The notes: generated from the letters alone by a model not told the origin. 38,962 nt of DNA from a virus (IMGVR_UViG_2703718778_000007:1-38962); one strand, 5' to 3'. Counted from the first letter of the stretch, positions 34,050-34,520 are shown. Translations and numbers: made by a program.

Positions 34050-34138
34050 CTTCTCAAACACCAGGAACGTGCAAAAACCAAATATGTAGAACGCAATATT
34101 CAGCATATCTCTTTGCATAAATCCTCCGCAACTGATAG

Positions 34139-34432
34139 TTAGCTGCTGTCTTTTTTATATAGCTCTTTGAGCGTATCAAAGACAATTTTCTTAACCATAT
34201 CAGATTGTTGTTCTGCCATACGCTCTGCATCGTCAATGTAAACTGATGCAGAGCTTTGTTTAGCCAATGATTCTTCAATCGCTGCAATTATCTCTGAGTT
34301 CAGCGACCTGTTATTCATCTTCGCACGCTGCTTAATTTTCGCGTGGAGTTCATGCGGAAGTCTCAAGTGAAACTGCGCCTCGTCGTATTTGCTGTACATC
34401 CTTGATGCCTCACCAGTTGGGTGGAATGGCAT
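34139..34432 (-). CDS. mnt: Mnt-like ribbon-helix-helix repressor (orphan)
   Basis: NNRSLNSEIIAAIEESLAK...YIDDAERMAEQQSDMVKKIVFDTLKELYKK aligns with P22 Mnt; true start may be the internal ATG at 34399. Confidence 0.7.
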   Translation of the reverse strand: MPFHPTGEASRMYSKYDEAQFHLRLPHELHAKIKQRAKMNNRSLNSEIIAAIEESLAKQSSASVYIDDAERMAEQQSDMVKKIVFDTLKELYKKDSS

Positions 34433-34520
34433 CGTAACCTACTGGATAAATACTCAATAGTACCATTTCGGTATGCAATCACATCATGGTTGCATCATAT
34501 CATTCGTCTGGAGCAATGAA

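Follow-up and report, generated by a model that had tools for sequence, protein, structure and literature searches.

The locus described here belongs among P22-like phages whose ant moron has been reduced to the repressor gene mnt. In ST64T, ST104 and Para1 the moron consists of only mnt and one further ORF, and Sf6 is without a moron (Villafane et al., PMC2629481). The genome of phage L has the same mnt-only layout, and its authors noted that mnt there "could have acquired another function or be a remnant" (PMC8022706). At the corresponding position of prophage BTP1, a leftward RNA of 500-786 nt that is made in the lysogen, STnc6030, runs from the tailspike gene's 5' end over the moron site as far as the gene-16 homologue's 3' end and excludes BTP1 (Owen et al. 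2020, PMC7067206).

The window analyzed here (the whole 38,962-nt stretch of viral DNA, IMGVR_UViG_2703718778_000007:1-38962) is a P22-like (Lederbergvirus) genome that, around mnt, is closest to coliphage IME10, Shigella phage Sf101, and Sf6. We found that an ORF on its minus strand (34139-34432) matches the Pfam families Arc (PF03869, 1e-14) and Repressor_Mnt (PF11423, 3e-14). The N-terminal domain of the product aligned to residues 3-76 of the solved structure 1MNT (E 3e-19), the C-terminal domain aligned to 1QEY (E 2e-8) with the motif DAER...VKK.VFDTLK.LYKK kept, and the protein is 49% identical to P22 Mnt. Judged by these alignments, the product is a true Mnt homologue, with a predicted Arc-type ribbon-helix-helix domain followed by the Mnt tetramerization coiled coil. 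On one side lies a gene-16-type ejection (DNA transfer) protein gene (32052-34049, plus strand; homologues are annotated as DNA transfer or injection protein), which is convergent with mnt, with 89 bp between the two stop codons. On the other side, and divergent from mnt, lies the tailspike gene (34521-36341, plus strand), which encodes an N-terminal Head_binding domain (Pfam, 9e-66) and is preceded by the Shine-Dalgarno sequence GGAG (34510-34513); its true start, ATG 34521, aligned with the starts of the Sf6, P22, and other tailspikes. The proposal, made from the sequence alone, that a Mnt-type repressor separates the last ejection-protein gene from the tailspike is thus borne out by the Pfam matches, the structure alignments, and the gene order. 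No intrinsic terminator was predicted between mnt and the gene-16 homologue, where folding was no better than that of shuffled sequences, and no Rfam family matched within 33800-34800.

The extent of the gene required correction at both ends. The gene stands, but the lower of the bounds first given for it (34054-34520) is where a spurious overlapping ORF of 77 aa ends. The likeliest coding sequence is 34139-34399 on the minus strand (86 aa), as indicated by the Pfam and 1MNT/1QEY alignments and by the starts in the JEP4 record and in PGAP annotation. This start, ATG 34399, is Met12 of the 97-aa ORF; it has GAGG 8 nt to its 5' side and is the annotated start in JEP4 (86 aa), in the PGAP annotation of O139 (86 aa), and in those of ET826 and A10 (84 aa). 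Because the upstream ATG (34430-34432) sits within an invariant TACGAT -10 hexamer and the JEP4 and PGAP annotations choose the internal codon, we regard Met12 rather than 34432 as the likely start. It follows that the mnt-tailspike intergenic distance is about 121 bp, not 88 bp. The in-frame upstream extension (34400-34432, minus strand), which holds the mnt leader and the ribosome-binding site GGTGAGG (34408-34414), is probably untranslated.

The remainder of immI is missing. Searching the window by tblastn with P22 Arc, Ant, and SieA returned nothing (Arc E = 4; best Ant value 0.08), in agreement with the earlier statement that arc and ant are absent beside mnt, and the window has neither an arc gene divergent from mnt, nor an ant gene under Mnt/Arc control, nor a Pant lying over the operator. 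A gene in the nin operon (14336-15058) had been read as the antirepressor. That gene does encode a Rha N-terminal domain and an ANT/KilAC C-terminal domain, and it is the only ANT-domain gene in the window; HK620 and CUS-3 list its homologue as "DNA-binding protein Roi", and it is the standard nin-region gene roi, so that the gene is real and the antirepressor reading is not. The roi start overlaps the stop codon of the preceding ORF, to which roi is translationally coupled, which leaves no gap between the two in which a separate roi promoter could lie. The palindrome suggested to be common to this gene and the mnt-tailspike region was searched for, and no operator copy was found at roi. The gene is also 96% identical (DNA) in Kapi1 and CUS-3, both of which still carry ant adjoining the tailspike. 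The idea that Mnt acts in trans on roi is therefore not supported.

Set beside P22, the window shares the two-domain Mnt, the slot between gene 16 and gene 9, the orientation, and the register of the operator beside the Pmnt -35 element, but it lacks arc, sar, ant, sieA, and Pant, and its operator half-site is TACCR rather than GGTCCAC. It is closer to L, ST64T, ST104, SE1, ST160, and Gally, in which the moron has likewise shrunk to mnt, alone or accompanied by one small ORF. As in those mnt-only morons, mnt occupies the gene-16/gene-9 slot as the sole immI gene, diverges from the tailspike, and retains a candidate operator palindrome and a probable Pmnt together with a GATGCC...GGCATC repeat, while Pant is lost. 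Unlike the mnt-only Salmonella phages and Gally, the window has a tailspike leader of the Sf6 type (theirs is of the P22 type) and neither a terminator nor an extra ORF after mnt; phage L has a bidirectional terminator immediately after the gene. Sf6 and the window share the tailspike leader, with its TGCAAT-N10-TTGCATC, as well as the 3' flank of gene 13, but Sf6 has 48 bp of unrelated sequence in place of the cassette. Similarity to Sf6 is lost after CTCTTTGCATA (34109-34119) and picks up again exactly at 34473, so that the Sf6 megablast alignment falls into two pieces. This break delimits a 353-bp mnt cassette (34120-34472) relative to Sf6 and places the inverted repeat ATGCAA-N11-TTGCAT (34473-34495, plus strand) in the Sf6-type tailspike leader. 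BTP1 STnc6030 differs from the cassette in being non-coding, without a mnt ORF, and in having a function demonstrated by experiment.

This arrangement is widespread. At least 80% of the segment 34100-34560 is present in 249 of 5426 complete Escherichia coli genomes, IMG/VR yielded 227 confirmed relatives of the cassette, and mnt is directly divergent from the tailspike also in IME10, Sf101, Gally, JEP4, VSe13, L, and ST160. We conclude that the window cassette, in the homology, architecture, and conservation observed here, is an ordinary member of the described mnt-only ant moron class and that its arrangement is both known and common; the novelty at first attached to an orphan mnt does not survive a previously described type found in about 250 of 5426 E. 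coli genomes. The main value of the analysis is accordingly one of correction: an orphan mnt is common and known and shows no evidence of rewiring, the nin-region gene is roi, and the conspicuous repeat belongs to the tailspike leader. A broad protein search returned only entries that were unnamed or named "Arc family DNA-binding protein." Separately, Mnt homologues carry the label "partition protein ATPase" in RefSeq phage records (including that of P22, and Sf101 gp14 at 4012-4305) and in PHROG 795, and this label is a propagated misannotation.

What the cassette retains of P22 regulation is a probable promoter and a candidate operator. The inferred mnt promoter comprises a -10 element, TACGAT (34431-34436, minus strand), which is invariant in nine relatives and occupies the position of the P22 Pmnt -10 TATCAT, and a -35 element, TTGAGT (34452-34457, minus strand), at the position of the P22 Pmnt -35 TTGAGA. 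The spacer is 15 bp in the window and 17 bp in the JEP4 lineage. With 8 of 12 consensus matches, TTGAGT-15-TACGAT is under the threshold of our promoter scan and was not called; transcription from it would start near 34424. Beside it lies our best candidate for the Mnt operator, GTACCATTTCGGTAT (34460-34474), with the core palindrome TACC-N5-GGTA (34461-34473), of which the window contains a single exact copy against 0.19 expected by chance. Read in the direction of mnt, the window runs ...ATACCGAAATGGTAC-TA-TTGAGT..., with the palindrome 3 bp from the -35 element. The register is shared by the core of P22's annotated Mnt operator, AGGTCCACCGTGGACCT, which stands directly upstream of the P22 Pmnt -35 TTGAGA and is overlapped by Pant on the other strand.

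The conservation of this palindrome follows the Mnt protein class. We aligned nine diverged upstream regions (among them E. coli types A and B, Escherichia sp. E1V33, VSe13, Buttiauxella, Serratia, and Citrobacter) and found four kinds of invariant block: the TACC-N5-GGTA palindrome, the adjacent ATTG, TACGAT, and AGGCAT of the ribosome-binding region. E. coli, Salmonella, Buttiauxella, and Serratia all keep the operator core unchanged, and only the Citrobacter copy breaks it. At the same place, Rahnella has GTACCGTTAAGGTAC and Klebsiella aerogenes has ATACCAAAATGGTAC; the palindrome thus persists at 62-70% Mnt protein identity (Buttiauxella, Serratia, Rahnella, and Klebsiella). The Citrobacter sp. 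copy (2926-2938) has a broken arm, TACC...AGTA (TACCGAAATAGTA), the only such copy in its mnt class, and the accompanying mnt (3001-3252) is the only copy of the class with an in-frame stop (MYSK*). An exact search for further operators in the window gave only the copy at 34461-34473, and a search for the operator 15-mer with up to 3 mismatches gave 17 loose matches, equal to the 17 expected, none of them in a regulatory position.

Operator and protein also appear to have changed in step. P22 Mnt, with the recognition strand RDDPHFNFR, goes with the half-site GGTCCAC; Mnt of L, ST160, and Gally, with RDDPQFNLR, goes with AGACCAC; and the window class, with DEAQFHLR, goes with TACCR, so that recognition strand and half-site change together across three Mnt classes. 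The palindrome next to the -35 element is perfect in L and ST160 (AAGACCAC-G-GTGGTCTT) and in Gally (AGACCAC-T-GTGGTCT), and the RDDPQFNLR class with AGACCAC-N-GTGGTCT that characterizes these mnt-only phages is distinct from the class of the window. No P22-type operator with a GGTCCAC half-site is present in the window. In the DNA-contacting strand, the window has DEAQFHLRLP where P22 has DDPHFNFRMP. P22 Mnt reportedly contacts its operator through Arg2, His6, Asn8, and Arg10 (work ascribed to Knight and Sauer), and at these positions the window protein has Tyr/Lys, Gln, His, and Arg, keeping Arg10 alone; we take the recognition-strand positions of all three classes to be base-contacting, as in the work of the Sauer laboratory. 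The analysis in this way supplies a candidate operator, TACC-N5-GGTA, and a promoter for a widespread class of Mnt proteins that pass under the two database labels given above.

A second inverted repeat, GATGCC-N18-GGCATC (34404-34433), spans the inferred -10 element, the mnt leader, and the ribosome-binding site, and encloses an inner CACC-N5-GGTG repeat (34411-34423). We considered the inner repeat as a second operator and discarded it, since the inner sequences vary in Gally, L, and Buttiauxella while the outer arms persist. The GATGCC and GGCATC arms are kept in Gally, phage L and ST160, Buttiauxella, and Rahnella, and the sequence that they enclose differs in Gally, L/ST160, and Buttiauxella (GTCC...GGAC in the last). 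On the plus strand, that of the late mRNA, the element folds with z = -2.3. We consider it more likely a leader or antisense structure than a second operator. Also near the intergenic region, a promoter-like sequence on the minus strand, CTGACA-17-AATGAT (34527 to 34499), overlaps the tailspike start and faces mnt, and occurs only with the Sf6-type leader. As read from its sequence, it could yield a longer mnt transcript in the window lineage; were it active, the operator would come to lie downstream of the transcription start, and the transcript would contain the longer reading frame of 97 aa.

We think it reasonably probable that this mnt-only ant moron is an autoregulated Mnt cassette expressed from the prophage, with a weak promoter of its own and an operator at 34461-34473. 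By homology to P22, a Mnt tetramer made from the prophage would bind the operator adjoining its own promoter, and bound Mnt would set the level of the leftward transcription unit. The promoter would be the weak sigma-70 sequence TTGAGT-15-TACGAT, with TACC-N5-GGTA abutting its -35 element, and the window Mnt would represent a separate specificity class whose operator has changed to match. Because the arc-sar-ant part and Pant are absent, the tailspike would have to rely on read-through of the late operon across the cassette. Mnt binding, use of the promoter, and the direction of autoregulation are carried over here by analogy with P22. The stimulation of Pmnt by Mnt in P22 is reportedly a relief of competition from Pant (Vershon et al. 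1987); since Pant is absent from the window, neither the sign nor the size of autoregulation can be predicted from that case. The window offers no other target in cis. Any further role would be exercised by the antisense transcript or in trans, on other prophages or incoming phages that carry this operator.

The gene is maintained. We observed dN/dS values of 0.03-0.19 for mnt against its relatives, including 0.185 between the window and the cargo-less copy of Escherichia sp. E1V33 (dS 0.27) and 0.027 between JEP4 and VSe13 (dS 1.1), and mnt is intact in 84 of 85 loci. The N-terminal domain is near-invariant across genera, and the C-terminal domain is mosaic. By these sequence comparisons, mnt is under strong purifying selection and is not a decayed relic; the suggestion that it might be an inactive remnant with damaged dimerization or tetramerization residues is answered by two domains that are both present, a low dN/dS, and an intact gene. 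Purifying selection on a cassette without cargo suggests a function beyond autoregulation, which bears on the choice between remnant and new function raised for phage L.

Some relatives carry additional genes. In two metagenome contigs a Rap1a-family gene lies downstream of mnt in the same orientation, and in the loci L225/L226 (4258-4620) the corresponding product, 3' of mnt, is a 120-aa Rap1a-family (type VI immunity-like) protein with a signal peptide. A gene for a 106-aa secreted protein lies 3' of mnt in locus L222 (4261-4581, same orientation), a signal-peptide ORF lies downstream in the same orientation in Rahnella, and a 161-aa lipoprotein-like ORF lies 3' of mnt in E. coli EC974 (2911-3396), with an ORF of equal length in VSe13 (1953-2438). 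In these cargo-bearing relatives the mnt cassette has the look of a promoter-and-regulator unit that heads a small operon expressed in the lysogen; in the window it carries mnt alone, with no cargo ORF.

The cassette also coexists with complete immI regions. In several P22-like prophages (L010, 1020-3363; L115; L127; L141; L144; L154; and L181) a full, separately regulated mnt-like/arc/ant immI on the left is accompanied by a mnt of the DEAQFHLR type directly upstream of the tailspike, the two being convergent. The operator of the second immI in these two-Mnt prophages is an unrelated palindrome, ACCAAGTTGGT; a near-match in the ET826-type immI, AACCAAGTTGGTA, which we had considered as a Mnt operator, turned out to be this different palindrome. 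Among the 83 loci with upstream DNA, the upstream neighbor of a DEAQFHLR-class mnt is the tailspike in every case (with an HNH endonuclease gene inserted in between in about 12 of them) and never arc or ant. A more far-reaching reading is that DEAQFHLR-type mnt is no leftover of immI but an independent, selected prophage module, adjacent to the tailspike even beside a complete immI, which acts beyond self-regulation as an antisense or insulator unit, as a decoy repressor, or as a promoter for cargo. We offer this reading tentatively and regard it as doubtful. If it were true, an antisense or insulator unit would tune or block late transcription of the tailspike, with exclusion of related phages as in BTP1; a stand-alone decoy repressor would act against antirepressor-carrying phages; and the cassette as a portable regulated promoter would serve conversion cargo.

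An action of Mnt in trans would be immunity in its simplest form: the prophage Mnt would repress the ant promoter in other phages, incoming or co-resident, that share its operator and so protect the lysogen from antirepressor-driven induction. P22 Mnt does this to superinfecting P22, as is established for immI, and the Mnt of the window is complete, conserved, and probably expressed in the lysogen. What is missing is a target. We scanned IMG/VR for the exact 15-mer GTACCGTTTCGGTAT and analyzed 80 matches, among which there was no ant operon (60 were unrelated contigs, and in all 20 P22-like matches the site was that between mnt and the tailspike). In 85 of 85 loci TACC-N5-GGTA was found only between mnt and the tailspike, and the ant operons found nearby use the different palindrome of the two-Mnt prophages. 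We therefore judge immunity in trans unlikely.

The contrary view, that the gene is a functionless relic of immI decaying after the loss of arc and ant, can draw on the lack of an ant gene to control or any other target in the window, on the remnant option raised by the authors of the phage L genome (PMC8022706), and on the single Citrobacter copy that is a pseudogene with a mutated operator. It is difficult to reconcile with purifying selection that is strong also between cargo-less copies, with a promoter and operator conserved across genera, with an intact mnt in hundreds of genomes, and with retention of the cassette even beside a separate, complete immI. Decay is thus quite improbable.

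The transcript rather than the protein might be what matters, with a leftward mnt transcript opposing read-through into the tailspike or acting like STnc6030, and Mnt setting its level. The precedent of STnc6030 at the same genomic position (PMC7067206) speaks for this, as do the lack of a predicted terminator between mnt and the gene-16 homologue, the belief that the P22 moron modulates the level of tailspike, and the constant position of the cassette next to the tailspike, also where there is a second immI. The argument is one of pure analogy, however, and BTP1 has no mnt ORF at the site; the bidirectional terminator of phage L directly follows mnt, and adjacency to the tailspike may be mere history and linkage. 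We hold interference of this kind to be very unlikely as the explanation of the cassette.

The same intergenic region contains the inverted repeat that the sequence-only reading had proposed as the operator. The repeat exists, at the coordinates given above, and its arms extend to ATGCAATCA (34473-34481) and TGGTTGCAT (34487-34495), 9 nt with 89% complementarity; the exact pattern ATGCAA-N11-TTGCAT occurs once in the window, where 0.44 occurrences with up to one mismatch are expected by chance. It is absent from JEP4, VSe13, O139, ET826, A10, Buttiauxella, and Serratia, whose Mnt DNA-binding domains are near-identical to that of the window and whose tailspike leaders are of the P22 type, and Sf6, which has no mnt, carries GTGCAAT-N10-TTGCATC at the corresponding place. 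The repeat thus fails as the Mnt operator, being absent with the same DNA-binding domain and present without the gene. We consider TACC-N5-GGTA the better candidate on this comparison of sequences, in which distant relatives make the distinction because the closely related population keeps both elements equally (the operator arms and the repeat are each broken in 2 of 81 copies). In Escherichia sp. E1V33 a compensatory double change, ATTCAA...TTGAAT, preserves the repeat, which may therefore be under selection for something. As an RNA hairpin the repeat was rejected: a 9-bp stem is predicted, yet its z value is -0.9 against shuffled sequences and Sf6 pairs the site differently.

The divergent promoters that were to share this operator also do not hold up. 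Our scan found no tailspike-directed promoter in the window, O139, or phage L, and the same scan recovered P22 Pant (11/12) and Pmnt (10/12); the window positions equivalent to P22 Pant read ATGGCA-15-TAAATA and are degenerate. Hence, although the repeat is real, unlikely by chance, placed between both genes, and kept by compensatory change in E1V33, and although TATCAT (34498-34503) could be the -10 element of an activator-dependent promoter, a start after TATCAT would leave a leader of about 11 nt overlapping the Shine-Dalgarno sequence, type-B relatives with an identical DNA-binding domain do without the repeat, in about 12 of 85 loci an HNH gene stands between mnt and the tailspike, and the acyltransferase gene has no operator copy nearby, so that a common operator for divergent promoters of mnt and the tailspike, with Mnt rewired to repress the tailspike or the acyltransferase, is scarcely credible.

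Several minor observations concern the boundaries of the cassette. The motif GC(A/G)TGGCTACGGTGA occurs twice in P22 (1091-1110 and 1201-1220), flanking the segment from the ant terminator to gene 9, and in JEP4 and L it stands about 12-20 bp from the Mnt operator, upstream of the tailspike. CUS-3 annotates similar stretches as "boundary sequences," an annotation by which arc and ant might have been lost through recombination at this motif; a literature search on "boundary sequences" gave nothing usable. The HNH endonuclease gene lies at 3865-4374 in E. coli EC974, at 3341-3850 in loci L222 and L225, and in about 12 of the IMG/VR loci L013-L092. In EC974 it is inserted after the first five tailspike codons (ATGTCAGATATCACC), leaving a duplicated gene start, and it resembles a homing element whose target is the conserved tailspike start. 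In JEP4, the conserved tailspike leader and start (ATGACAGATATT) are followed, within 2150-2370, by unrelated AT-rich sequence, and the annotated tailspike start lies about 190 bp beyond the conserved one, which suggests that the head-binding end has been replaced or that the start is misannotated.
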